Assembly (NCBI GenBank): GCA_015063685.1
Contig: SVTR01000008.1
Span: 1,451 to 65,450 of the forward strand
Source of the DNA: Oscillospiraceae bacterium
GTDB taxonomy: Bacteria; Bacillota; Clostridia; Oscillospirales; CAG-272
Length of the DNA stretch: 64,000 bases
Reading direction: 5' to 3'
The stretch's first letter is position 1. Every line of letters begins with the position of its first letter. Positions 3,944 to 60,421 of this stretch are shown piece by piece. Under the pieces are notes generated by a model, which saw nothing but the letters and a program-made list of their open reading frames with translations, was not told the DNA's origin and made no database searches. Made by a program: the position numbers and the translations under genes.

Positions 3944-4291
3944 ATGGATTATGTAAACGAAAACCCCATGACCGTCAGAGATATCTCGCCGGCACAGGCA
4001 GGACGGCAGAATATCCTTGAGGATCACGAGGAGAGCATGGGAGGATGCGGCTGCACTCCCGGTTGCCCTTGGTCAAATCAGTGTGCTGACGGCTGGGGGC
4101 TGACAGACCACCCTCTGGCTATGGTCTACTCGCCCTGTCAGGGCTTTCACGGGCTGTATGATTTGGAAACGGCCCTCAAGCGAGGCACCTTGTTTTCCGA
4201 ATTGGATCTTCCCTTGGAGGTCGTAGGAGACCGAGACACCATTTCCGCTTGCGGCAGATGCGGCAGAGCATCCCGCTCCAAAACAGTATAA
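3944..4291 (+). CDS. cotJA: Spore coat-associated protein CotJA
   Basis: Carries the CotJA-family motif PLAMVYSPCQGFHGLYDLETALKRGTLFSELDLPL. AGGAGG lies upstream of the ATG, and cotJB and cotJC follow directly. Confidence 0.8.
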   Translation: MDYVNENPMTVRDISPAQAGRQNILEDHEESMGGCGCTPGCPWSNQCADGWGLTDHPLAMVYSPCQGFHGLYDLETALKRGTLFSELDLPLEVVGDRDTISACGRCGRASRSKTV

Positions 4292-4306
4292 GGAGGTGTA
4301 TCATCC

Positions 4307-4906
4307 ATGATGAATCATAAATACGTTCGCGCGCCATACGCGCACGGCTTGAACTATGGTGGCTATACAGGCCTGCAACGCTTGGAACGGAAAGGCTATG
4401 ATCATGGCTTTGCCACTCGCCCGGATTTCGGACAGCCGTCCCAGAACGGAAACGCTTGCCCCTTGAACCGTAACCGTCGGGCAGGGCATAGTATGCCTTT
4501 CGGTGACAGTGCACGCTCCTCAGAACGATTTGGCCGAGGTAGCATTTGCGGTTGTGGCCGATCCTCCCATGGAAATCAGACCGTGCCCGCCCAGTCCGTG
4601 GATATTCCTTCCATTGAGGAAGGCTGCGGATGCGGTTGTGGGGAACAAAACGGAACCAACTGCGACAAGCTTTTGAAGCAGATCCAGACCGTGGATTTTG
4701 CCTTGTACGAGGTGATTCTTTATCTGGACGCCTATCCCGACCATTGTGAAGCCCTGGAGCTTTACCACAAGCTGGTGGCCCGCCGCAAGGGACTTTGGGC
4801 ATCTTATGAGGAGGCTTGCGGCCCCTTGACTGCCATGGGTAACGTCAGCACCACCTCCTGGGATTGGGTAAAGTCTCCCGCCCCTTGGGAATATTCCCAA
4901 AACTAA
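4307..4906 (+). CDS. cotJB: Spore coat protein CotJB with a ~110-aa N-terminal extension
   Basis: The C-terminal ~85 aa (LLKQIQTVDFALYEVILYLDAYPDHCEALELYHKLVARRKGLWASYEEACGPL) match the CotJB pattern. GGAGG lies 9 nt before the ATG at 4307. The true start could be internal. Confidence 0.7.
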   Translation: MMNHKYVRAPYAHGLNYGGYTGLQRLERKGYDHGFATRPDFGQPSQNGNACPLNRNRRAGHSMPFGDSARSSERFGRGSICGCGRSSHGNQTVPAQSVDIPSIEEGCGCGCGEQNGTNCDKLLKQIQTVDFALYEVILYLDAYPDHCEALELYHKLVARRKGLWASYEEACGPLTAMGNVSTTSWDWVKSPAPWEYSQN

Positions 4907-11526: not shown

Positions 11527-12612
11527 ATGTCCAAGTCCATCTTCGAAATTGATCAGAATTTAGCCGTTGAAACGGTGGCCAATCTCCCCGTTCAGTTTGT
11601 CAACGTCCTTGACGCGCCCTTCAACCTCTACGGTCTCTGCGACCCCCACGGCGGCGGAGCCTTCCACCGCATCCCCCAGGAGGTGGCCGACGCCACCAAC
11701 GAGGGGGTGAAGTTTCTCAACCTCCACACCTCGGGCGGCCGCGTGCGCTTTAAGACCGATTCCCCCCACCTGGCGGTGAAGGTCAAGCTCTCGGGTGTGG
11801 GCATGATGCCCCATATGACTCTCGTGGGTACGGCAGGAATTGACGTATATCTTGGCTACGACGGCGAGTATCGCTACTACGGCTCCTGCTTGACCGAGAT
11901 GGGTAACGACGCCGCCATCAAGATGACCGAGAATAAGGGGTATACCAACATGGTCTGGCTCCCCGCAGAAGGGATGCAGGACGTCCTCCTGAACCTTCCC
12001 CTCTACGGCGGGATCGACGAGCTGTGGCTGGGACTAGCCCCAGGCTCCAAGATAGAACCCGCCGCTCCCTACCGTGACCTGCTTCCCACGGTCTACTATG
12101 GCTCCTCCATCACCCAAGGGGGATGTGCCTCCCGCCCCGGCAATCATTATCCAAACATCCTTTCTCGCAAATACAACGTGGACTTTCGCAACCTGGGCTT
12201 CTCGGGGAGCGCCCGCGGTGAGCAGGCCATATCCGACTACATCGCAAGCCAACCCATGTCGGCCTTCGTCTACGCCTATGACCACAACGCCCCCACCGTG
12301 GAGCATCTGGCCGCCACCCATGAGCCTATGTACCTGAATATCCGCGCCACCCATCCCGACACCCCCGTCGTCTTCATCACTCGCCCCGGCATCCGCTACA
12401 ACGCCGAGGAAAGAGCCCGCCGCGAGGTGGTCAAGGCCACCTATGAGAACGCTAAGGCCAGAGGGGAGAACGTCTACTTCGTGGACGGCGAGACTATCTT
12501 CGCCATCTTCGGCGGCGACGGCGGCAGCGTGGACGGATGCCACCCCAACGATCTGGGCTTTGCCTGCGTGGCGGCGGCCCTCGACCCCATTTTTGCGGAG
12601 ATTTACGGATAA
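11527..12612 (+). CDS. SGNH/GDSL-type hydrolase (esterase-like)
   Basis: Carries YYGSSITQGGCASRPG (block I Ser), GFSGSARGE, and DGCHPNDLGF (block V D..H). The start is trimmed to the ATG at 11527 after AAGGAGG. Confidence 0.75.
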   Translation: MSKSIFEIDQNLAVETVANLPVQFVNVLDAPFNLYGLCDPHGGGAFHRIPQEVADATNEGVKFLNLHTSGGRVRFKTDSPHLAVKVKLSGVGMMPHMTLVGTAGIDVYLGYDGEYRYYGSCLTEMGNDAAIKMTENKGYTNMVWLPAEGMQDVLLNLPLYGGIDELWLGLAPGSKIEPAAPYRDLLPTVYYGSSITQGGCASRPGNHYPNILSRKYNVDFRNLGFSGSARGEQAISDYIASQPMSAFVYAYDHNAPTVEHLAATHEPMYLNIRATHPDTPVVFITRPGIRYNAEERARREVVKATYENAKARGENVYFVDGETIFAIFGGDGGSVDGCHPNDLGFACVAAALDPIFAEIYG

Positions 12613-12829
12613 ATTGTAGTTTATCGGTCGGTTCGTTCCCCGCTCCCCGACCTTCCCCTTTGGGGAAGGTGGCGCGCCCGTAGGGCGTGACGGATGAGGT
12701 GATAACGCTGGCACATCAAGATGTTTTGGCCCATACGTCTTACCTCATCCACCACCTTCGGTGGTCCCCCTTCCCCAAAGGGGAAGGTTCGGAAACGTTG
12801 GTTGCAACCCACCGATAAACCCAAATTTG
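12610..12829. repeat. Palindromic element, P family, bounded by junction-motif variants
   Basis: The ends are TAAATTGTAGTTTATCGGT and ACCGATAAACCCAAATTT. Inside are two CCTTCCCCTTTGGGGAAGG-type palindromes and a GGATGAGGT/ACCTCATCC pair. The first 3 nt are the upstream gene's stop codon. Confidence 0.85.
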
Positions 12830-12852
12830 AACACAAATGAAAGGATACACCC

Positions 12853-16074: not shown

Positions 16075-16857
16075 ATGTACAACAACCATAAAGTTGTCAT
16101 CTGTGGTGTAAATACGGCAAACCTCAAGGTACTGACCGAGAAAGAAAAACAGGACCTCATGGTGCGTGTCAGAGGAGGAGATACCCAAGCCCGTCAGGAA
16201 ATGATCTGCGGGAATCTGCGACTGGTGCTGTCTTTGGTACAGCGGTTTGCAGGACGAAAAGAAAATCTGGATGACCTCTTTCAGGTGGGTTGCATCGGCC
16301 TTGTGAAGGCGGTTGACAATTTTGACATCACGAAAGAGGTCATGTTTTCCACTTACGCCGTTCCAATGATCATCGGAGAGATGCGGCGCTATCTCAGAGA
16401 TAACGCCACCGTGCGGATCAGTCGCTCGGTTCGAGATCTGGCTTACCGTGCCCTCCAGGTGAGAGAGGAGCTTTCCGCCGAGCTGTCCCGCGACCCCACC
16501 CCCGACGAGATCGCCGAAAGACTGGGGGTGCCCCGACAGCGGGTGGTGGCGGCTATGGATGCCATCGTGGAGCCCATCTCTCTCTACGAGCCCGTGTTCA
16601 GCGAGAACGGGGATTCCCTCTATGTCATCGATCAACTCTCGGACACCTCACGCGACGCCAGCGACGAGTCCTGGCTGGAGAACATCGCCCTCCGCGAGGC
16701 GGTGGCGACCCTGTCTCCTCGAGAACAGAATATTATCAAGCTCCGCTATTTCAAGGATAAGACCCAGATGGAGATCGCCTCTGAGATCGGCATCTCGCAG
16801 GCCCAGGTGTCGAGGATTGAAAAGGCGGCGCTGCAGAAGCTTAAAAAACAGTTGTAA
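16075..16857 (+). CDS. sigG: Sporulation sigma factor SigG
   Basis: Near-colinear with B. subtilis SigG: KVVICGVNT, GNLRLVLSLVQRF, DDLFQVGCIGLVKAVDNFD, FSTYAVPMIIGEMRRYLRDN, GISQAQVSRIEKAAL. The ATG at 16075 has AGGAG upstream. Confidence 0.9.
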   Translation: MYNNHKVVICGVNTANLKVLTEKEKQDLMVRVRGGDTQARQEMICGNLRLVLSLVQRFAGRKENLDDLFQVGCIGLVKAVDNFDITKEVMFSTYAVPMIIGEMRRYLRDNATVRISRSVRDLAYRALQVREELSAELSRDPTPDEIAERLGVPRQRVVAAMDAIVEPISLYEPVFSENGDSLYVIDQLSDTSRDASDESWLENIALREAVATLSPREQNIIKLRYFKDKTQMEIASEIGISQAQVSRIEKAALQKLKKQL

Positions 16858-17054
16858 ATGGTTGTTTAGCGTGGCGACCGCCGCATTTTTGACCTTCCCC
16901 TTTGGGGAAGGGGGACCATCCGAAGGATGGTGGATGAGGTAAAAAACTATGGCCGCAATATGTTTTCGGTTTTAGCCTCACCCACCGCAAGCGGTTCCCC
17001 CTCCCCAAAGGGGAGGGTATAGGGCGCGTGTCTCCTCCGCTAAATAACAATTTA
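16855..17054. repeat. Palindromic element, P family, bounded by junction-motif variants
   Basis: The ends are TAAATGGTTGTTTAGCG and CGCTAAATAACAATTTA. The interior is related to 12610-12829. It starts on the sigG TAA stop codon. Confidence 0.85.
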
Positions 17055-17099: not shown

Positions 17100-17945
17100 A
17101 TGAAAACGTATCATCTTACGAAAGAATTTATCACCGCCACCACGAACGCCATGCGTGAGGCTGGACGTATCATGCTCTCCGCCCATCGGGACGGTCAGGG
17201 TGGCGAGGTTACCTCTGACGAGATCAACGACAAGGACACCGCCCATGCCCAGGTCAACTTCGTTACGGTTTACGATAAAAAGGTTCAAGCCCTGCTGATC
17301 GAAAAATTACATATAGCCCTCCCAGAGGCCAAGTTTATGGCCGAGGAGGACGGTGCCGATCAGACCGACCCCACCGAAGGACTGTGTTTTGTCATCGACC
17401 CCATCGACGGTACCGCCAATTTTATTCGCGACTTGGCTTGCTCGGCCATATCTGTGGCGCTTTTGTCTGAGGGTATGCCCGTTTTCGGCGCGGTCTACCA
17501 GCCCTATGCCGACGAGTTGTTCCTGGCTGTCCGAGGGCAGGGAACGGTCTGCTACCGCCATGGTAATCCTCCCGAGAGGGTCACCGTCAGCACCCGCCCT
17601 TTGAAGGAGGCCATTGCCCTCCTCGGCACCTCCCCTTACTATAAAGACGAGTTGGGGGAAACTACCGTATCTCTCTTCAAAAATTGTCTCTACCATGCCG
17701 CCGACGTCCGCAGAAGCGGCTCTGCCGCCTATGATTTCTGCAATATTGCCATGGGGCGCACCGACCTTTTCTGCGAAGCCCGACTGTCCCCTTGGGACTA
17801 CGCCGCAGGCTGTCTGATTGTCACCGAGGCGGGTGGACAGGTCACTTGCCTTGATGGCACCCCTCTGCGCTTTGATCAGCCCTGCTCCGTCCTCGCGGCA
17901 GGATGCGGATGCTATGACGAGGCGGTGGAGATATTTCAACGGTAA
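17100..17945 (+). CDS. Inositol monophosphatase family protein
   Basis: Carries FMAEEDG, VIDPIDGTANF and WDYAAGCLIVTEAGG. The start is trimmed to the ATG at 17100. Confidence 0.85.
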   Translation: MKTYHLTKEFITATTNAMREAGRIMLSAHRDGQGGEVTSDEINDKDTAHAQVNFVTVYDKKVQALLIEKLHIALPEAKFMAEEDGADQTDPTEGLCFVIDPIDGTANFIRDLACSAISVALLSEGMPVFGAVYQPYADELFLAVRGQGTVCYRHGNPPERVTVSTRPLKEAIALLGTSPYYKDELGETTVSLFKNCLYHAADVRRSGSAAYDFCNIAMGRTDLFCEARLSPWDYAAGCLIVTEAGGQVTCLDGTPLRFDQPCSVLAAGCGCYDEAVEIFQR

Positions 17946-18234
17946 ATTGTTGTTTAGCGTTGTTGTGCCCCGCCTTGAAACAGTCATCCTGAGCGAGGGC
18001 GATGCCCGAGTCGAAGGATCCCACAGGAAGCAAAACCTTTTTATGACAATGGTTTTTTACAGGTATAAAGAGATCCTTCGGCGCGGCCAGCGGCCTTGTT
18101 CAGGATGACCGCGTTGGTCAGTAAACGCCCATAAACAACAATTTATCAGCCTAACCATCCATCGCGTGATGTATCTAGCACAGGATGCACTACCCCGAGC
18201 CAGAGCCCCACCGCAGGTGGTAAACAACAATTTA
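17943..18234. repeat. Composite element: junction motif - H cassette - junction motif - Xa arm - junction motif
   Basis: Exact TAAATTGTTGTTTA at 17943, and exact TAAACAACAATTTA at 18132 and 18221. Nearly identical to 29722-29999 except that the inner cassette is inverted. Confidence 0.9.
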
Positions 18235-19010: not shown

Positions 19011-19160
19011 ATTTTTGTTTATCGAAGAGATACAAGATACGGCCGAGCAAGCTCGGCAGATACAAGATACAAGATAGGGAACTTTTGAAAAAATATGTCG
19101 CCGTATGGGTTTAGGAATATCTTGTATCTCGTATCTCGTATCTCGTATCTCCGTATCTCT
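19008..19160. repeat. K-family element: junction-motif variant, GATACAA heptamer runs, GCCGAGCAAGCTCGGC hairpin, inverted heptamer run
   Basis: TAAATTTTTGTTTATCG lies on the stop codon at 19008. The hairpin is at 19042-19057. The inverted run TATCTTGTATCTCGTATCTCGTATCTCGTATCTCCGTATCTC lies at 19117-19160. Confidence 0.8.
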
Positions 19161-19206
19161 CCGCAACGCCGCATTTTGCTCATATCATCTTGAAAGGAGA
19201 CTCCAT

Positions 19207-19860: not shown

Positions 19861-19878
19861 AGAAAAGTTATAGGTAAT

Positions 19879-19995
19879 AGTGAAGAGTGAATAGGTGTGG
19901 ATGGAAACCTTCGGTTTCCCACATTCAAGTAAAAAATGGACAAATCCGAAGGATTTGCACCTCCACTTTTCACTCTTCACTCTTCACTCTTCACT
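19879..19995. repeat. S-family inverted doublet flanked by TTCACTC heptamer runs
   Basis: AGTGAAGAGTGAA on the left and (CTTCACT)x4 on the right enclose the hairpins GGAAACCttcGGTTTCC and CAAATCCgaaGGATTTG. Confidence 0.75.
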
Positions 19996-29630: not shown

Positions 29631-30016
29631 TAAATTGTTGTTTAGCGGGCAGTGCCCGCAGCCAACGCTCGGGAATGTTCAACCCATGTGAACTGCATCC
29701 CGCGATGGGCAGTTAGGCAGGTAAATTGTTGTTTATGGGCGTTTACTGACCAACGCGGTCATCCTGAGCAAGGCCGCTGGCCGCGCCGAAGGATCTCTTT
29801 ATACCTGTAAAAAACCATTGTCATAAAAAGGTTTTGCTTTCTGTGGGATCCTTCGACTCGGGCATCGCCCTCGCTCAGGATGACTGTTTCAAGGCGGGGC
29901 ACAACAACGCTAAACAACAATTTATCAGCCTAACCATCCATCGCGTGATGTATCTAGCATAGGATGCACTACCCCGAGCCAGAGCCCCACCGCAGGTGGC
30001 CGGCAAACACAATTTG
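29631..30016. repeat. Complete composite element: motif - Xb arm - motif - H cassette - motif - Xa arm - degenerate motif
   Basis: Exact motifs at 29631 and 29722 (forward) and 29911 (reverse), with degenerate CAAACACAATTTG at 30004. It fills the spacer between the lipoprotein gene and dxr. Confidence 0.9.
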
Positions 30017-32367: not shown

Positions 32368-32434
32368 GGGATACAGCTTGTCGTATAATGAGGTAAATTG
32401 TTTTCTCCCGACATAAAATCAAGAGGAGGCTTCT

Positions 32435-33517
32435 ATGAATTACAACGCCATTCGCCGTGCGACGCGACCTGTCAAAGTTGGCCGCGTGGGCATTGGTGGG
32501 ACAAATCCCATCGTCATTCAATCCATGACCAATACCGACACTCACGACCTGTCGGCCACTATAGAGCAGATCAAGGCTTTGGCTTCGGCGGGGTGTGATA
32601 TTGTCCGTCTCACCGTGCCCGATCTGGAGGCCGCTGAGACCATTCGTGCCATTAAGGAGCAGGGACTCACCATCCCTCTGGTGGCAGATATCCATTTTAA
32701 CCACAAGATTGCCTTGCGTTGTGCCGAGTACGGGGTGGACAAAATCCGCATCAACCCCGGCAACATCGGGGCGGACGAGTACGTAAAGGAAGTGGCCGAC
32801 GCTTGTCGTCAGCGGAACATTCCCATCCGCATTGGTGTCAACAGCGGATCTCTTGAAAAACATATTTTGGCCAAGTACGGCGCACCTACCCCCGAAGCGC
32901 TGTGCGAAAGCGCACTCTATCACGCCGCCCTTTTGGAAAAGTTCGATTTTGAGGATACGGTGATCTCCATCAAGGCCTCCACCGTGCCGAGCATGATCAA
33001 AGCCAACCGTCTGCTGGCTGAGAGGTGCGCTTATCCTATTCACCTGGGCGTCACCGAGGCGGGAGGCGCCGAGATGGGACTGGTCAAGTCAGCCGTGGGC
33101 ATCGGTGCCATGCTTTGCGAAGGCATTGGTGACACCTTCCGCGTGTCCCTCACCGCATCTCCCGTGAAGGAGATCGACGCCGCCAGAAAGATCCTCAATG
33201 CCGTGGGCGTGGAGGGACAATGCGGCTTGCAGATCGTGTCCTGTCCCACCTGCGGACGCACTAAGATCGACCTGATTGACCTGCACACCCGCTTTGAGGC
33301 GGCGGTAAAGGCCGAGGGGCTTATGGATCTGCCTGTGAAGGTGGCTCTCATGGGGTGCATTGTCAACGGCCCAGGTGAGGCACGGGAGGCCGACATTGGT
33401 ATCGCCGGAGGCAAGGGTGAGGCTTTGCTTATCGCCCGGGGCGAGGTGCTTTGCAAGATCCGTGAGGATGAGATCATCCCCACGCTGATTGGGAAGCTTA
33501 AAGAAATGAAAGGTTAA
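32435..33517 (+). CDS. ispG: 4-hydroxy-3-methylbut-2-en-1-yl diphosphate synthase
   Basis: Carries VGGTNPIVIQSMTNT, RINPGNIG and SCPTCGRT...GCIVNGPGE. Confidence 0.93.
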   Translation: MNYNAIRRATRPVKVGRVGIGGTNPIVIQSMTNTDTHDLSATIEQIKALASAGCDIVRLTVPDLEAAETIRAIKEQGLTIPLVADIHFNHKIALRCAEYGVDKIRINPGNIGADEYVKEVADACRQRNIPIRIGVNSGSLEKHILAKYGAPTPEALCESALYHAALLEKFDFEDTVISIKASTVPSMIKANRLLAERCAYPIHLGVTEAGGAEMGLVKSAVGIGAMLCEGIGDTFRVSLTASPVKEIDAARKILNAVGVEGQCGLQIVSCPTCGRTKIDLIDLHTRFEAAVKAEGLMDLPVKVALMGCIVNGPGEAREADIGIAGGKGEALLIARGEVLCKIREDEIIPTLIGKLKEMKG

Positions 33518-34321
33518 ATTGTTGTTTACCACCTGCGGTGGGGCTTTGGCTCGGGGGAGTGCATCCCGTGTGAAACTCATACCGCAATGGGCAGTTAGGC
33601 AGATAAATTGTTGTTTATGTTCTTTTCCACTTTCTTTCCTCGGCGAAAGAAAGTGGAGTAAAGAGCGCCGCCAAAGACAGAACCTACGGTTCTCCTCTGG
33701 ACTCCAACTCCCTCGTGACGCACGCCGCTCCCCAATGGGGGAGTGGAGCGGCTATCGCGTGTTTTGTGTCAGCCAACGCCGATAGCCTGCCCCTGCGGCG
33801 GAGCGCCTTGAGGCTCATACCTCGCTGTTTAGAAAGCGTTAGTTGATTTGAAAAAATTCAATATTGAAAAATAGCATTGAATCCATAGTTCTCACGGCGA
33901 GAGGTGATTGTTTGATTGGAGAACAACAACATTTGTCCATTCGCCATCAGAACTGTAGCTTCGCCACCTGACTCTGACCATCCCTCTGTTCTACCAACAG
34001 AAACATATCAATTGGACTTTTGATGAGCCCCGAGGCGCTCCGCCGTGGGGGCGGGCCACCGCTGGTGGCTGACAAAATACACGCGATAGCAGACCACCTC
34101 TGTGGTCTGCGTGCGTCACGAGGGAGTTGGGTTCTTAGGGAGAACCGTAGGTTCTGCACTAAGCGGCGCTCTTTTGGAACTTTTCTGCCGCCGTGGGCAG
34201 AAAAGTGGAAAGAATGCTAAACAACAATTTACCTGCCCAACTACCCAGCGCGATATGTGGTGCGTACAGAATGCACTACCCCCAGCGATGGTAGCCAGCA
34301 CGGCCGGCAAATGACAATTTA
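33515..34321. repeat. 807-bp nested composite palindrome filling the ispG-polC spacer
   Basis: Forward motifs at 33515 and 33604, reverse at 34218, degenerate at 34308. The X arms are 33529-33603 and 34232-34307. The core consists of two ~200-bp inverted arms (33618-33820 and 34022-34217) around an AT-rich ~200-bp centre. Confidence 0.9.
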
Positions 34322-34382
34322 TACAACAAAAGAGAAAATCAAATAAAAGATAGATAACAGATAACAGAAAGAGAAGAACGAC

Positions 34383-37300
34383 ATGAAAACCCTACCGGAG
34401 ATACTTTACAAATACACCCCCGACAGGGACACTTACGATCTGCTCATGACGGCGGCGGACATAAAAGTCAGCGCGGAAAAGGAGCGGAGACTGCTACAGA
34501 TCAGCGCCGCCTTCCCCTATATCATTCCCAAGAGCACGCTGTACCGCATTGAGGAAGAGGTGCGCGTGGCTTACGGGCTTCAGTACGTCAAAATCCTCCC
34601 CCGATATGCGCCGGAGCTTTTTACCCGCGACTATATCCCGGAGCTTTTGCAGGAGACCGAGCGTGTGGGTGTGGTGGCTCGGGGCTTTTTCTCCCATTAC
34701 CGCGCGACCCTGGAAGAAAATCATCTGCTCATTGAGATCCCCTTCATCAAGGAAGGCGTCATGCTGCTGACCAATGCCCATACCCACGATATCATCAGTC
34801 GTATCATCTACAGTGAATTTGGCTTGACTGTGACGGTGGATATTCAGAACTCTGAAGATCTTCAGGACGTTGTCAGCGAGCGCATGCAGGAGCAACTGGC
34901 ATCCATGGACCGTGATCTTCAGGCGGCAGAGATGGCCTATGAACAGGGCTTGGCTGCCAGAAATCATACCCCCCGTGAGCCTGCGGCACCCGCCCCCAAG
35001 GAGGAGATCCTGCCCCGCGTGGCTACGCTATTTGAAAATGCGCCCGGAGTGTCCAATGAGGCCAAGCAGGAAAACGGCCTTTGCCACATTGGCTTCATGA
35101 CCTTCGATATTTCCGCTCCCGAATTTGCGTTGGGCGGGGAATTCGATATTGTGCCCACACCCCTGTCTGCCATTGACAAGCCCCAGAGAGGACTCGTGGT
35201 TTTGGGGGAGGTCTTTGGCTTTACCAAGGAGGCTAACCGGGCGGGAGATAAGTTCAATGTCACCTTCTCCCTCACCGACAACAGCGCCTCCATCGAGTGC
35301 CGTAGCTACGGCATGCTTCCTGAGGACGCGGACGAGCTTGGCGCCGTCATCAAAAACGGTGCAGTGCTTGCCATCAAGGGCTATACCAAGCGGGAGGTCA
35401 AGCGTGACCGCACCGAGGGGCCTGATCTTCTGTTCTACCACAACGCCGTGGCCAAGATCAAAAAGCTGGAGCGTAAGGACAACGCGGAGAAAAAGCGCGT
35501 AGAGCTCCATATCCATACCCAAATGTCCTCTATGGATGCCATCATTCCCCCCTCGGATCTGGTGAAGCAGGCCAACAAGTGGGGGCATCCCGCCGTGGCC
35601 ATTACCGACCACGGCAACGTCCAGGCCTATCAGGACGCCATGCTGACCGCTGAAAAGATCGGGCAGAAGGTGATCTGGGGCATGGAGGCCTACTTCGTCA
35701 ACAACACCGCGGGCGCCGTCTACGGAGATTGCCCCGGTGCCATTGATCAGGAGGCTGTGGTGTTTGATATCGAAACCACGGGTCTGTCGGTGCAGAACTG
35801 CCGCATTACCGAGATCGGTGCCGTCAAGATCAAGGATGGCGAGGTGATGGATCGCTTCAACATTTTCGTTGACCCCGAGGAGCCGATCCCCGAAGAGATC
35901 GTCAAGCTTACAGGCATCACTGACGAGATGGTGAAGGGTGCGCCCAAGGAGGCTGAGGCACTCCGTCAATTCTTTGATTTCGTAGGTAAGCGGGAGGATG
36001 GCGGCGAGATGCTGCTCATCGCCCACAATGCCGACTTCGATACGGGCTTTATCCGTGCCGCCGCTCTGCGTTCGGAGATGGCATTCAATAATCCCTATCT
36101 TGATACTCTGGCGCTGGCTCGCTTCCTCCTCCCCGACATGAAGAGCCACAAGCTGGACAAGGTGGCGGAGCGGTATGAGCTGGGGGATTTCAATCACCAC
36201 AGAGCCTGCGACGACGCCGAAATTCTGGCGCGAATCTATTTCTGTATGATCCGTGATCTGCACGACGCGGACGTGCGTACCTTTGACATGCTGACTCGTG
36301 AGATGGCGGAAAAGACCGATCCCTTGAAGCTCCCCACCTACCACCAGATCCTTTTGGTAAAGAATAAGGAGGGCTTGAAAAATCTCTATAAGTTGGTCTC
36401 CTTCAGCTATCTCAATTACTTCCGCAAGCAGCCCCGCATCCCCAAGACCGAGCTGGAAAAGCACCGTGAGGGTCTGATCGTGGGCTCGGCCTGCGAGGCG
36501 GGCGAGCTGATGCGGGCTATCATTGACAATAAGCCCGAGGCCGAGATCGAGGAGATCGCCAAGTTCTACGATTACCTGGAGATCCAGCCCATTGTGAACA
36601 ATCGCTTCCTCATTTCCGAGGGCAAGGCCAAGGACGATGAGGATCTCAAAAACCTCAACCGCCGCGTGGTGGCCCTGGGTGAGAAGCTGAATATCCCTGT
36701 GGTGGCCACCTGCGACGCTCACTTTATGAACCGCGAGGACGAGATTTACCGTCAGATCCTCATGGCCGGCCTGAAATTCAAGGATTACGACAGGGAAGTG
36801 GGGCTTTATTTCCGCACCACCGAGGAGATGCTCACGGAGTTCTCCTACTTGGGAGAAGAAAAGGCCTATGAGGTGGTGGTGGAGAACACCAACATGATCG
36901 CTGACATGATCGAAAATGACATCCGTCCCTTCCCCAAGGGCACCTTCAACCCCCACATGGACGGCGCGGACGAGGATCTGGAGCGCATCTGCTATGAAAC
37001 TGCCAAATCCCGCTACGGTGATCCTCTGCCCCACATCGTGCAGGACAGATTGGAGCGCGAGCTGCCCTCCATCATCAAAAACGGCTTTGCGGTGCTGTAT
37101 ATGATCGCCCAAAAGCTGGTGGCCTACTCTGAGTCTCAAGGCTATCTGGTGGGCTCCCGTGGTTCTGTGGGATCGTCGGTGGTCGCTAACCTGGCCGGCA
37201 TCTCTGAGGTAAACCCTCTGCCTCCTCACTACTGGTGCTCCAAGTGTAAATATTCTGATTTTGAGACCGCCAAGAAGCTGAACGTCTTCTCGGGCTTTGA

Positions 37301-38831
37301 CTTACCCGACGCCAACTGTCCCGTGTGCGGTGAAAAGCTGAACTACGACGGCCATGACATCCCCTTTGAGACCTTCCTTGGCTTCTACGGCGACAAGTCT
37401 CCCGATATCGACCTGAACTTCTCGGGCGAAGTGCAGGGACGGGTACATAAATATACCGAGGAGTTGTTCGGTGCGGAAAACGTGTTCCGCGCGGGCACCA
37501 TCGGTGCTTTGGCGGACAAGACCGCCTATGGCTTCGTCATGAAATACCTGGAGGGGAAGGGCATCAGCGTCAACCGTGCTGAGGTCAATCGCCTGACCTC
37601 CCATTGTGTAGGTGTCAAGCGCACCACGGGTCAGCATCCCGGCGGCATCGTGGTAGTGCCTAAGGAGTACGAAATTTACGATTTCTGTCCCGTCCAGCAC
37701 CCTGCCGACGATCCCAATTCGGATATTGTCACCACCCACTTTACCTTTGAATATCTCCACGATACCCTACTCAAGCTGGATGAGCTGGGACACGATATGC
37801 CCACCAAGTACAAATACTTGGAGAAGTATTCCGACACCTCGGTGTTGGACGTGCCCATGAACGACCGCTCCATTTACGACCTGTTCCTGGGTACCAAGCC
37901 CCTGGGCGCGTCTCCCGAGGAAATCGGCTGTCCCCTGGGCACCCTGGGTCTGCCTGAGCTGGGCACCAACTTCGTGGTGAAGATGCTGGAGGAATGTAAG
38001 CCCCAGACCTTCTCCGACCTGCTCCAAATCTCGGGTCTGTCCCACGGTACCGACGTGTGGACGAACAACGCCCAGGAATTGATTGCTGACGGGACCTGTA
38101 CCATTTCCGAGGTTATCGGTACCCGTGACGATATCATGCTGGCGCTGATCCGTTATGGGGTGGAAAAATCCCACGCCTTCAAGATCATGGAGATGGTGCG
38201 TAAGGGCAAGGGTCTGACCCCTGAGTTTGAAGCGGAGATGCGTGAGGCAGGTGTGCCTGACTGGTATATTGCCTCCTGTAAGAAGATCAAATACATGTTC
38301 CCCAAGGCTCACGCCGCGGCCTACGATATGTCAGCCATCCGTTTGGGATGGTACAAGGTACACATCCCCCTGGCTTTCTATTGCGCCATGTTTACGGTCA
38401 AGCCCCTGGGCTTTGACGGAGAGCTGGTCATGAAGGGCAAGGGCGCGGTGGCGGCCTATATCAAGGACATCAATGATCGCGCCAACAAGGGAGAGGCCTC
38501 CCCCAAGGAGCAGCAGAGCTTGCCCGTTTTGCAGCTTGTCAATGAGGCCTATGCCCGCGGCATCAAATTCCTTCCTGTGGATCTGGAAAAGTCCAGCGAC
38601 GTGGAGTATCTCCCCGAGGACGGCAAGATCCGTCTCCCCTTCTCGGCCTTGGCCGGTGTGGGTGAGAATGCCGCCGCCAACATCGCTGCCGCTCGTGCCG
38701 AGGAGCCCTTCTTCTCGGTGGAGGACCTCCAAAACCGCGCTAAACTCACCAAGGCCGTCGTCGAGACCCTCCGCGCAAATCACGTCCTTGACGGGGTCAA
38801 CGAGACGGATCAGATGACCATGCAGTTCTGA
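34383..38831 (+). CDS. polC: DNA polymerase III, PolC type
   Basis: A 1482-aa ORF with a PHP domain (VELHIHTQMSSMDA), a DnaQ-like exonuclease inserted (VVFDIETTGLS, HNADFDTGF, HRACDDA), and a polymerase core. Confidence 0.97.
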   Translation: MKTLPEILYKYTPDRDTYDLLMTAADIKVSAEKERRLLQISAAFPYIIPKSTLYRIEEEVRVAYGLQYVKILPRYAPELFTRDYIPELLQETERVGVVARGFFSHYRATLEENHLLIEIPFIKEGVMLLTNAHTHDIISRIIYSEFGLTVTVDIQNSEDLQDVVSERMQEQLASMDRDLQAAEMAYEQGLAARNHTPREPAAPAPKEEILPRVATLFENAPGVSNEAKQENGLCHIGFMTFDISAPEFALGGEFDIVPTPLSAIDKPQRGLVVLGEVFGFTKEANRAGDKFNVTFSLTDNSASIECRSYGMLPEDADELGAVIKNGAVLAIKGYTKREVKRDRTEGPDLLFYHNAVAKIKKLERKDNAEKKRVELHIHTQMSSMDAIIPPSDLVKQANKWGHPAVAITDHGNVQAYQDAMLTAEKIGQKVIWGMEAYFVNNTAGAVYGDCPGAIDQEAVVFDIETTGLSVQNCRITEIGAVKIKDGEVMDRFNIFVDPEEPIPEEIVKLTGITDEMVKGAPKEAEALRQFFDFVGKREDGGEMLLIAHNADFDTGFIRAAALRSEMAFNNPYLDTLALARFLLPDMKSHKLDKVAERYELGDFNHHRACDDAEILARIYFCMIRDLHDADVRTFDMLTREMAEKTDPLKLPTYHQILLVKNKEGLKNLYKLVSFSYLNYFRKQPRIPKTELEKHREGLIVGSACEAGELMRAIIDNKPEAEIEEIAKFYDYLEIQPIVNNRFLISEGKAKDDEDLKNLNRRVVALGEKLNIPVVATCDAHFMNREDEIYRQILMAGLKFKDYDREVGLYFRTTEEMLTEFSYLGEEKAYEVVVENTNMIADMIENDIRPFPKGTFNPHMDGADEDLERICYETAKSRYGDPLPHIVQDRLERELPSIIKNGFAVLYMIAQKLVAYSESQGYLVGSRGSVGSSVVANLAGISEVNPLPPHYWCSKCKYSDFETAKKLNVFSGFDLPDANCPVCGEKLNYDGHDIPFETFLGFYGDKSPDIDLNFSGEVQGRVHKYTEELFGAENVFRAGTIGALADKTAYGFVMKYLEGKGISVNRAEVNRLTSHCVGVKRTTGQHPGGIVVVPKEYEIYDFCPVQHPADDPNSDIVTTHFTFEYLHDTLLKLDELGHDMPTKYKYLEKYSDTSVLDVPMNDRSIYDLFLGTKPLGASPEEIGCPLGTLGLPELGTNFVVKMLEECKPQTFSDLLQISGLSHGTDVWTNNAQELIADGTCTISEVIGTRDDIMLALIRYGVEKSHAFKIMEMVRKGKGLTPEFEAEMREAGVPDWYIASCKKIKYMFPKAHAAAYDMSAIRLGWYKVHIPLAFYCAMFTVKPLGFDGELVMKGKGAVAAYIKDINDRANKGEASPKEQQSLPVLQLVNEAYARGIKFLPVDLEKSSDVEYLPEDGKIRLPFSALAGVGENAAANIAAARAEEPFFSVEDLQNRAKLTKAVVETLRANHVLDGVNETDQMTMQF

Positions 38832-60085: not shown

Positions 60086-60421
60086 TAAATTGTTGTTTAC
60101 CACCTGCGGTGGGGCTTTGGCTCGGGGTAGTACATCCTGTGCCTAATGCATCACACGATAGGGGATAGGCAGGTAAATTGTTGTTTACGGGCTTCTGACC
60201 AACGTGGTCGTAGGGGCGAACTGTGTTCGCCCGTAATAAAAAGTATATTGATAACAAGGTTTTTTGGGGAACGGCGGGCGAACGCAGTTCGCCCCTACGG
60301 GTTTTCATTAATCCTCCGCCAAACAACAATTTAACTGACCAACTACCCATCGCGGTATGCGGCCTGCATGGGTTGAACATCCCCGAGCGTTGGCTGCCGC
60401 ACGGCGGCAAACAACAATTTA
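60086..60421. repeat. Complete composite element: motif - Xa arm - motif - G-family doublet - motif - Xb arm - motif
   Basis: Exact TAAATTGTTGTTTA at 60086 and 60174, and CAAACAACAATTTA at 60320 and 60408. The core doublet GTAGGGGCGAACtgtGTTCGCCC ... GGGCGAACgcaGTTCGCCCCTAC spans 60210-60298. Confidence 0.9.

Follow-up and report, generated by a model that had tools for sequence, protein, structure and literature searches.

The spacer between ispG and polC in the 64-kb window, that is, the whole stretch of Oscillospiraceae DNA analyzed here, is filled by an 807-bp palindrome far beyond chance expectation (Table 1). The arrangement of short motifs, X arms, core arms and a centre that had been proposed in a preliminary description was recovered part by part, and the hairpin pairs quoted there for the two core arms are correct, as is the retention of AGAACCtacGGTTCT in both of them. 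The element starts on the ispG stop codon, as described, the TAA triplet (33515-33517) being its first three bases; the distance from its other end to the polC start codon is 61 nt and not 62 nt. The position of the ispG stop is unchanged in relatives that lack the element.

Table 1. Genes and parts of the composite element in the ispG-polC region (window coordinates)
Feature	Position	Strand	Remarks
ispG	32435..33517	+	NCBIfam NF001540/TIGR00612, above cut-off
Junction motif copy 1, TAAATTGTTGTTTA, outer left end	33515..33528	+	Exact match
Left X module	33529..33603	+	H1 hairpin CCACCtgcGGTGG at 33529-33541, with a larger stem-loop after it
Junction motif copy 2, X/core boundary	33604..33617	+	Exact match
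Type-A core, left arm	33618..33820	+	From the 18-arm alignment
Left-arm hairpin a	33626-33657
Left-arm hairpin b	33671-33700		Contains AGAACC-tac-GGTTCT
Left-arm invariant box, CCAACTCCCTCGTGACGC	33704-33721
Left-arm hairpin c	33724-33752
Asymmetric AT-rich centre of type-A core	33821..34021	+	Aligns with centres in SIG684, RGIG3848 and RGIG8736/8715
Conserved blocks of the centre	33883-33904 and 33937-33966		ccattcgccatcAGAACtgtagcTTC...
Conserved junction, TTTTGATGAGCC	34015-34026		Spans the centre/right-arm boundary
Type-A core, right arm	34022..34217	-	Inverted diverged copy
Right-arm hairpin c'	34089-34110
Right-arm invariant box	34109-34130
Right-arm hairpin b'	34134-34163
Right-arm hairpin a'	34179-34206
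Junction motif copy 3, core/X' boundary	34218..34231	-	Exact match
Right X' module	34232..34307	-	Inverted and diverged
Degenerate junction motif copy 4, AAATGACAATTTA, outer right end	34308..34321	-	61 nt upstream of the polC ATG
polC	34383..38831	+	NCBIfam NF001688, 1640 bits

The type-A core consists of two arms of ~200 nt and a non-palindromic, asymmetric centre of about 205 nt. The arms are significantly inverted copies of each other, which align end to end with 71% identity when gaps are counted, and three inverted-repeat blocks can be delineated in the element: 33549-33633/34202-34286 (76% identity), 33660-33725/34109-34174 (83%), and 33751-33818/34023-34090 (82%). The composition of the centre stands out, as had been noticed, with a GC content of 0.36-0.46 versus 0.55-0.65 for the flanks. 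Folding of both strands, which had been suggested as a check, gave structures far better than those of shuffled sequence (z = -23 and -28). Other copies of the family do not share the further motif-like stretch pointed out in the centre (~33921-33937), which therefore is probably coincidental.

The 14-nt motif TAAATTGTTGTTTA occurs 17 times in the window, where 0.13 occurrences would be expected, and it delimits seven intergenic elements, all with one module order: the motif, an optional 75-nt X module or modules (from 0 to 2 copies per side), the palindromic core, and then the mirror image. Inverted copies of the motif end the ispG-polC element and at least six further elements of the window, forming terminal inverted repeats. 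X modules related to the left X of the ispG-polC element were found between motifs of the same orientation at positions 29645, 60100, 18146(-) and 60334(-), as well as at loci of the related metagenome-assembled genome RGIG8736. In the X modules the H1 hairpin directly follows the motif, and variants of its stem are fully compensated; the structure of these modules was derived from single-sequence folds, since indels were misaligned and RNAalifold for that reason gave no consensus. The X modules of the window end at the 3' side with GTTAGGC, and this box is missing from the X modules of RGIG8736. An integron attC site was considered for these modules and rejected: no R'' box (RYYYAAC) capable of pairing with R' (GTTRRRY) is present at the 5' end.

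Multiple copies of the type-A core are present in each of at least four related species, represented by the assemblies RGIG8736, RGIG8715, RGIG3848 and SIG684. Its arms and centre occur at no fewer than 16 loci of RGIG8736, at least six of RGIG3848 and at least nine of SIG684, and also in RGIG8715, and an invariant 22-mer of the core was found at 12 loci of RGIG8736/8715. Many of these copies sit at contig ends, and on one contig (L129) an element is present in every inter-ORF gap. Thus the palindrome is not specific to ispG-polC: the same element occupies unrelated loci in these species, and other cores are found in the ispG-polC spacer of relatives. Its treatment as a structure of this locus in which processing sites or a small transcript should be sought is not supported. 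Some further genomes bearing the motif are labelled Faecousia. Among the matches listed for a scan of the whole collection with the bare 14-mer, most are chance hits in unrelated AT-rich genomes.

No match pointing to a plasmid or phage origin was found in PLSDB, INPHARED or IMG/VR, and full-text searches of the literature returned no description of this family. The family is a previously undescribed, modular and hairpin-rich one, which fills many intergenic spacers in this group of gut Oscillospiraceae. The type-A element is small, dispersed and devoid of coding capacity, as expected of a MITE, with the 807-bp composite at the large end of the range. The best reading of the family is a non-autonomous mosaic repeat resembling MITE, BOX and BIME elements, and the ispG-polC palindrome is likely a fixed copy of such a composite non-autonomous interspersed repeat, the family being maintained at the DNA level.

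Comparison of orthologous sites shows that the sites are stable and that their cores are replaced. The ispG-polC spacer contains core A in the window, core D in RGIG8736, and core F in SIG684; a species with 81% IspG identity has other cores at this site, and in more distant relatives the spacer is short (50-150 nt) and empty. Two further spacers, those preceding ispG and mtaB, show the same core replacement between species. Against one and the same flank, core C and core F are each found in either orientation, both orientations being seen only between different loci. In the locus L013, a motif-GCTCCGC-motif scar with 7 nt between the two motifs is found where the window has core C. The motif-bearing "empty" sites found are deletion scars, still with motif remnants, and therefore the state before insertion was never seen. 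As for target-site duplications, the 3 nt outside both ends mismatch in every element inspected, and the TA inside the motif could be the sole possible duplication.

The outer motif ends are anchored at stop codons. A long ORF, of 100 codons or more, has its stop near 99 of these ends; among them offset 0 forms the single sharp peak with 18 cases, no other offset having more than five. The TAA of the motif often is the stop codon of the upstream gene, and one TGA variant of the motif also serves as a stop. Many more outer ends lie 3-15 nt past the stop.

Within the species the element appears fixed. Contigs retrieved by exact-protein look-up from seven metagenomes carry it at 100% identity and in one orientation only, unlike an invertible DNA segment, for which both orientations would be expected at one locus within a population. 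Five of these seven contigs end inside the element; two long contigs from different metagenomes span it completely at 100% identity, and thus it is not an assembly artefact. No insertion or inversion polymorphism was seen in the seven assemblies, so ongoing mobility can be deduced only from the turnover between species and from near-identical paralogous copies. When metagenomes were scanned for variants of the spacer at strain level, no close relatives were returned.

These patterns also bear on two readings that give the motif a more active role. The motif together with the adjacent DNA hairpins might be the recognition and crossover site of an undiscovered recombination system, with an HUH-type or other site-specific enzyme, that installs, flips, swaps and deletes palindromic cassettes. 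Its docking sites would be fixed, exactly at stop codons or shortly behind them, and it would act in intergenic regions chromosome-wide, unlike cut-and-paste MITEs; we regard such a system as unlikely. A related proposal, which we find rather improbable, is that the motif is the crossover site of a cassette-like or shufflon/inverton-like site-specific recombination, so that the elements are cassettes and not transposons, the cores between inverted motifs being inverted or exchanged and the X modules between direct motifs being gained or lost. The motif at every module boundary, the two orientations of cores C and F against the same flank, the variable X copy number, the empty site of two motifs separated by 7 nt, and the different cores at the same sites in different species are all consistent with this proposal. 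However, the surroundings of the elements yielded no recombinase gene, the seven assemblies of the same species show a single orientation with complete identity, and inversion would change little, because the cores themselves are palindromes. Moreover, homologous exchange via the 75-nt X flanks accounts for the same patterns.

Covariation of the hairpins was assessed in an alignment of 18 type-A arms from three genomes, comprising 31 pairs. The hairpins of the arms are 90.9% paired, compared to 38-50% in slid controls; 12 hairpin pairs are changed on both sides and none on one side; and the observed covariation score was attained in 0 of 500 shuffles. Thus the earlier suggestion that hairpins are retained in both arms although their sequences differ holds statistically over the 18 arms, and indeed the two arms of a single element bear different hairpin variants. 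The covarying stems are strictly Watson-Crick, with no G·U. Mismatches between arms comprise 131 transversions versus 55 and 53 wobble-compatible transitions on the top and bottom strands, respectively, and hence show neither wobble preference nor strand bias. The generic signs of a functional RNA, G·U intermediates among the 31 pairs and one favoured strand among the arm mismatches, were not found.

It is very unlikely, in the light of these data, that the element is a cis-acting RNA dedicated to ispG-polC and selected via polC expression, be it a site of RNase III processing, an attenuator or a small RNA embedded in the operon. The element does lie between co-oriented genes, and, since no intrinsic terminator was predicted and no U-tract follows its stems, it probably is inside an ispG-polC co-transcript, as had been anticipated. 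The predicted RNA fold is very stable on both strands, the centre and the right end contain promoter-like hexamers directed towards polC, and the centre has blocks conserved across the family. Nevertheless, the same element is found at many unrelated loci, relatives have other cores or none in this spacer, the covarying stems and arm mismatches lack the marks of RNA selection, and no Rfam family matches. The dispersal, the differing cores in the spacer, the absence of G·U and the unbiased mismatches together point to a repeat family maintained at the DNA level and not as a structured RNA. Replication could also produce compensation exclusively by Watson-Crick pairs, without selection or enzyme recognition, through templated "quasi-palindrome correction". 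Some function beyond the repeat explanation is hinted at by the conservation of the asymmetric centre and by the invariant boxes.

Database searches support the absence of coding capacity and of a known RNA. With Rfam 15, region 33000-34800 yielded only two miRNA hits at chance level (E about 0.4), nothing reached the gathering score in the whole window, and the copy at L006 gave no hit. Pfam gave no match for the centre or for the ORFs of the element in the window, and no ORF is conserved across copies, in agreement with the initial view that the centre has no credible ORF; likewise, no known gene or non-coding RNA was found to match the centre. An ORF-less group II intron was rejected, as Rfam gave no hit to an intron domain and an intron would not be expected to form a near-perfect palindrome. 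The sequence AGAAC-N5-GTTC, which in the window is confined to the ispG-polC element, has the wrong spacing for a LexA/Cheo box (GAAC-N4-GTTC). No transposase or recombinase domain was detected among the 44 ORFs of the window. The clade loci covered amount to 420 kb, a small fraction of each genome; no multi-copy ORF was found in them, and a cognate autonomous insertion sequence with the same ends was found neither there nor in the 64-kb window. A decayed autonomous insertion sequence, in which the centre is what remains of a transposase gene or a small accessory gene and the long terminal repeats are represented by the arms, is highly improbable: the centre of RGIG8736 copies does carry a ribosome-binding site and an ORF of 55 aa that includes a CxxC motif, but this ORF relies on a 54-nt insertion peculiar to RGIG8736/8715, is frameshifted in two of five copies, is missing from the copies in the window, SIG684 and RGIG3848, and has one homologue among 5.8 billion proteins and no Pfam family.

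For the composite non-autonomous repeat, we propose the following scheme. An element is built of modules bounded by TAAATTGTTGTTTA, here two inverted 75-nt X modules and a type-A foldback core with its enclosed centre, the arms of this core carrying three conserved local hairpins plus the invariant boxes. Elements occupy long-lived "docking" positions against the 3' end of the upstream gene, and at one docking position the core turns over, being lost by near-complete deletion of the palindrome, with other cores arriving in either orientation. The local hairpins are kept by Watson-Crick compensations on both strands, while the long-range pairing of the arms decays. The modules may be moved or exchanged by a trans-acting enzyme that recognizes the motif and the adjacent hairpins, a candidate being a transposase, HUH or other recombinase encoded elsewhere, and recombination between the inverted X/motif flanks may contribute. 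In the ispG-polC transcript the element would be carried passively as a long RNA hairpin, which may be cut or may alter mRNA stability, as reported for other bacterial MITEs.

Several known families share parts of this design. The REP/BIME repeats of proteobacteria and the REPINs, mobilized by the HUH/Y1 transposase RAYT, have GC-rich hairpins beside a short conserved sequence, alternate in orientation, and contain linker motifs; they occupy spacers just 3' of genes, where positions are kept and composition varies, and compensatory changes maintain their structure. The H1 hairpin after the motif, the compensated stems and the mirrored module order are similar in design only, the sequences being unrelated; moreover, the units here, X modules of 75 nt and cores of 130-600 nt, are much larger, a 14-mer takes the place of GTAG as the conserved sequence, and the host is a Firmicute. 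For IS200/IS605-derived PATEs and other hairpin-dependent single-stranded DNA elements, it is DNA hairpins, and not sequence, that define the substrates of mobility, and insertion proceeds without duplication beside a specific short target. Covariation restricted to Watson-Crick pairs and the absent target-site duplication fit such elements by analogy, but the ends of IS200/IS605 are not mutual inverted repeats, and no Y1 transposase or TnpB was found here.

BOX elements are modular composite intergenic repeats of up to ~640 bp with a variable number of internal modules, extensive stem-loops and no coding capacity, and in S. suis differing terminal modules surround the same internal ones (PMC3049150). 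The family described here resembles the pneumococcal and streptococcal BOX (boxA-boxB(n)-boxC) in its 0-2 X modules per side and its interchangeable cores. Unlike BOX, to which it has no sequence relationship, it has the 14-nt motif at every module boundary, forms a nested palindrome as a whole, abuts stop codons, and shows no visible target-site duplication, such duplications being reported for BOX. Terminal inverted repeats, an AT-rich interior, strong hairpin potential, and multi-copy, intergenic and co-transcribed occurrence are shared with the MITEs Correia of Neisseria, ERIC of enterobacteria, and RUP. RNase III cleaves the RNA of Correia elements at the terminal inverted repeats, and transcript levels are affected by ERIC copies located at the 3' ends of genes (PMC10969869). 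These MITEs differ in being single units of 100-200 bp with a defined target-site duplication (TA for Correia) and a cognate insertion sequence where known, whereas here heterogeneous cores share one 14-nt end, modules are nested, and no duplication is seen.

For the ispG-polC locus the result is deflationary, as the palindrome is best regarded as a passenger repeat and not as an operon-specific regulator. The family itself is dense, with seven elements in 64 kb; it disrupts metagenome assemblies, most copies being located at contig ends, and it lengthens the operon transcripts of essential genes by stable hairpins of hundreds of base pairs. One 14-nt junction serving unrelated cores, exact anchoring at stop codons, and core replacement at conserved sites make an unusual combination, and finding the responsible enzyme could expose a new mechanism for targeting gene 3' ends in uncultured gut Firmicutes.

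The 14-nt junction motif that bounds the modules of the ispG-polC palindrome occurs 17 times in the window, compared to 0.13 occurrences expected, and its copies form seven intergenic clusters of shared design, listed in the table. A motif is followed by zero or more X modules (75 nt, with a motif after each), by a palindromic core whose middle is AT-rich, and by the mirror image of this series. The cores of types A to E found in the window have unrelated sequences.

Motif copies, motif clusters and the reading frame of the type-A centre (window coordinates; L006, L009 and L010 are loci of a related metagenome-assembled genome, RGIG8736)
Feature	Position	Strand	Core or genome	Basis
Junction motif TAAATTGTTGTTTA, exact	33515, 33604	+		sequence match
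Junction motif TAAATTGTTGTTTA, exact	34218	-		sequence match
Junction motif, degenerate copy	34308-34321			repeat/motif comparison
Cluster	12610-12833		type B	
Cluster	16855-17054		type B'	
Cluster	17943-18234		type C, 17957-18131	
Cluster	19008-~19170		type E	
Cluster	29631-~30015		type C inverted, 29736-29910	
Cluster (ispG-polC)	33515-34321		type A	
Cluster	60086-60421		type D, 60188-60319	
54-nt insertion with 55-aa ORF (MYGRKLRVY...RCQNCGF...)	L006 4700-4870; L009 245-415; L010	reverse in L010	RGIG8736	

Type A is present in a single copy in the window. An invariant 22-mer of its arms was found in 12 contigs, mostly at contig ends, of the related genomes RGIG8736 and RGIG8715, and with a second arm probe at least nine further loci were found in SIG684 and at least six in RGIG3848; where copies are complete in these relatives, the arms are those of type A and the centre is homologous. 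The type D core also occurs in the ispG-polC spacer of RGIG8736 (L014). The motif is limited to one genus-level clade, where further carriers include genomes labelled Faecousia. Species with 81% IspG identity have the variant motif TAAATTGCAGTTTA ... TAAACCCAAATTTG, and this variant form is found at the right end of the window element at 12610. In the type E core (19022-19170), the arms are tandem heptamers, GATACAA repeats versus TCGTATC repeats, and those of an ispG-polC element in a relative (L020, ~4095-4380) are (CGTAATT)n, both palindromes being made of short tandem repeats rather than unique sequence. At 19876-19984, at the overlap of two crude ORFs, there is an inverted repeat without the junction motif (42-nt arms, 74% complementary, AGTGAAG-like repeats). 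A 4976-bp contig of the genome SRR7188233_bin.36 (L129) has seven motif matches in 5 kb and a motif-bounded element in every inter-ORF gap.

The ispG-polC element is flanked by ispG and polC in the gene row dxr-rseP-ispG-polC, and sequence inspection bore out the layout proposed in the preliminary description. The arms are indeed inverted copies, with three inverted-repeat blocks (76-83% complementary) over the X modules and core arms; the two halves could be aligned end to end, and as single strands both orientations folded much more stably than shuffled controls (z = -23 and -28). The distinct composition ascribed to the centre was confirmed (AT-rich, GC 0.36-0.46 versus 0.55-0.65 in the flanks), as was the start of the element on the ispG stop codon, which is its first TAA. 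The gap to the polC ATG measures 61 nt, not 62 as claimed, and the motif-like stretch reported at ~33921 is without conservation in other copies. Since an identical 865-nt spacer is present in two long contigs of different metagenomes, and in five shorter contigs of other samples the sequence is unchanged up to a break inside the element, the palindrome is real, fixed in this species, and causes assembly breaks. The element is invariant within the species in contigs from seven metagenomes.

Five of the seven window elements supply the in-frame stop codon of the upstream gene through the TAA of their motif. Among all outer motif ends of the clade loci with a nearby long-ORF stop (n = 99), offset 0 is the sole sharp peak (18 ends), every other offset accounting for at most five. 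Ends clustering at -84 to -89 are cases with a degenerated first motif, and many others follow a stop (TGA or TAG) at a distance of 3-15 nt; one variant of the motif, TGAATTG, still works as a stop. No direct repeats flanking the elements were found. We infer either that a target containing TAA is regenerated by the end of the element, or that selection strongly favours the position that does the least harm to the downstream gene. In the related genome T1900044586 (L016, ~4060-4110), the ispG frame continues beyond its usual stop and enters the remnant of a truncated element, resulting in a different, longer C-terminus.

The ispG-polC spacer of the four species whose IspG is 94-95% identical likewise opens at the ispG stop with an X module or a motif, and the cores (D in RGIG8736, F in SIG684, incomplete in the others) all differ from that of the window. 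The spacer of the 81% species holds variant-motif elements with further different cores, and in more distant relatives it is empty (50-150 nt), and ispG ends on a TAA at an unchanged codon position. Upstream of ispG, different cores are found in RGIG8736 and SIG684; the window, RGIG3848, and T1900044586 retain nothing more than a partial motif there, sometimes together with an X hairpin. Upstream of mtaB, the window has X-D-X and RGIG8736 has core G. Such differences between species at the same sites indicate that the element positions are old and that the cores turn over. The partial motif TAAATTGTT (window 32395-32403) has a terminator-like hairpin with a TATAAT box on one side and the ispG RBS on the other; at this spot, relatives have full elements or motif-hairpin remnants. 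A conserved gcggga(n)gaCaCCCCCCGCaaaaa, ~25-45 nt upstream of the polC ATG, is common to relatives (L017-L022) and absent from the window and SIG684, whose spacers hold exact-motif elements.

Cores C and F were seen in both orientations beside the same kind of flank; because each flank of a core is an inverted copy of the other, exchange via the flanks could insert a core in either direction. The site upstream of dxr is occupied by X-C-X in the window. In RGIG3848, it has an X module followed by a forward motif, the 7 nt GCTCCGC, which match the usual core termini, and a reverse motif (L013, 358-392 for the two motifs and the 7 nt). This arrangement looks like the scar of a nearly complete core deletion, or like an empty docking site. 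The main alternative reading, in which the motif is the site of a dedicated recombination system that shuffles cassettes at fixed docking sites, seems to us rather unlikely. A search of the window for transposases and recombinases was negative, and no such enzyme turned up among multi-copy ORFs in 420 kb of clade loci.

In an alignment of 18 type-A arms from the window, RGIG8736, and RGIG8715, the segments CAGAACCTACGGTTCTCC and CCAACTCCCTCGTGACGC are invariant, and GGAGCGCCTYGRGGCTCAT has an exact probe match in all four related species with type A. Three local hairpins exist in the 18 arms as discrete sequence variants. With a hand-specified structure, 90.9% of cells are paired, compared to 38-50% after a shift of the partners by 1-3 columns; 12 pairs changed on both sides, no pair had a one-sided change, and the observed covariation was not reached in any of 500 column shuffles. 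The earlier suggestion that the arms keep the same hairpins with different sequences is thus correct and general. No G·U intermediates were seen in the covarying pairs of these arms. The two arms of a single element usually have different hairpin variants, and arm-to-arm mismatches are mostly transversions (131), wobble-compatible transitions numbering 55 on one strand and 53 on the other. These observations argue that the long-range palindrome is a decaying descendant of an inverted duplication, and that the local hairpins are the maintained feature, equal on both strands and with Watson-Crick pairs only. Such a pattern would be expected for DNA hairpins, either substrates of DNA enzymes or products of templated quasi-palindrome correction, and would be unexpected for a selected RNA fold.

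The palindromic box AGAAC-N5-GTTC, a candidate protein-binding site, is invariant in both arms (33679-33693 and 34141-34155). Most type-A copies contain it in the centre as well (for instance, L006, L009, and L332); it is degenerated in the centre of the window copy, and within the window is confined to 33515-34321. The ~205-nt form of the centre is common to the window, SIG684, and RGIG3848, and its conserved blocks are TTCCATTCGCTGTCAGAACTGTGGGTTCAC, the upstream complement CAGTTCTGAC, and the junction TTTTGATGAGCC. In RGIG8736 and RGIG8715, 54 extra nucleotides yield an RBS and a 55-aa ORF. Because two of five copies have a frameshift in this ORF, and because it has one homologue among 5.8 billion proteins and matched no Pfam family, the centre is non-coding, in agreement with the initial view that it contains no credible ORF.

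In our view, the element probably belongs with the non-autonomous mosaic repeats of the MITE/BOX/BIME type. A putative trans-acting enzyme would maintain and move it as DNA via the motif and hairpins, recombination between modules might also contribute to its movement, and palindrome deletion would account for its loss. The closest analogues, modular BOX elements (PMC3049150), REP/BIME mosaics, and classical MITEs, share this design but not the sequence, size, TSD, or known mobilising enzyme. No intrinsic terminator was predicted for the element, and it is therefore probably co-transcribed with ispG and polC. Correia-containing transcripts are cut by RNase III (PMC10969869), and by analogy the transcript of the element may be processed; no sign of its selection for RNA processing was found. 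Tests for an Rfam family (no match in the region, the whole window, or the L006 copy), an attC site, and an invertible segment were negative, as were comparisons of the element with plasmid and phage collections. A limited literature search yielded no description of the motif-bounded family.
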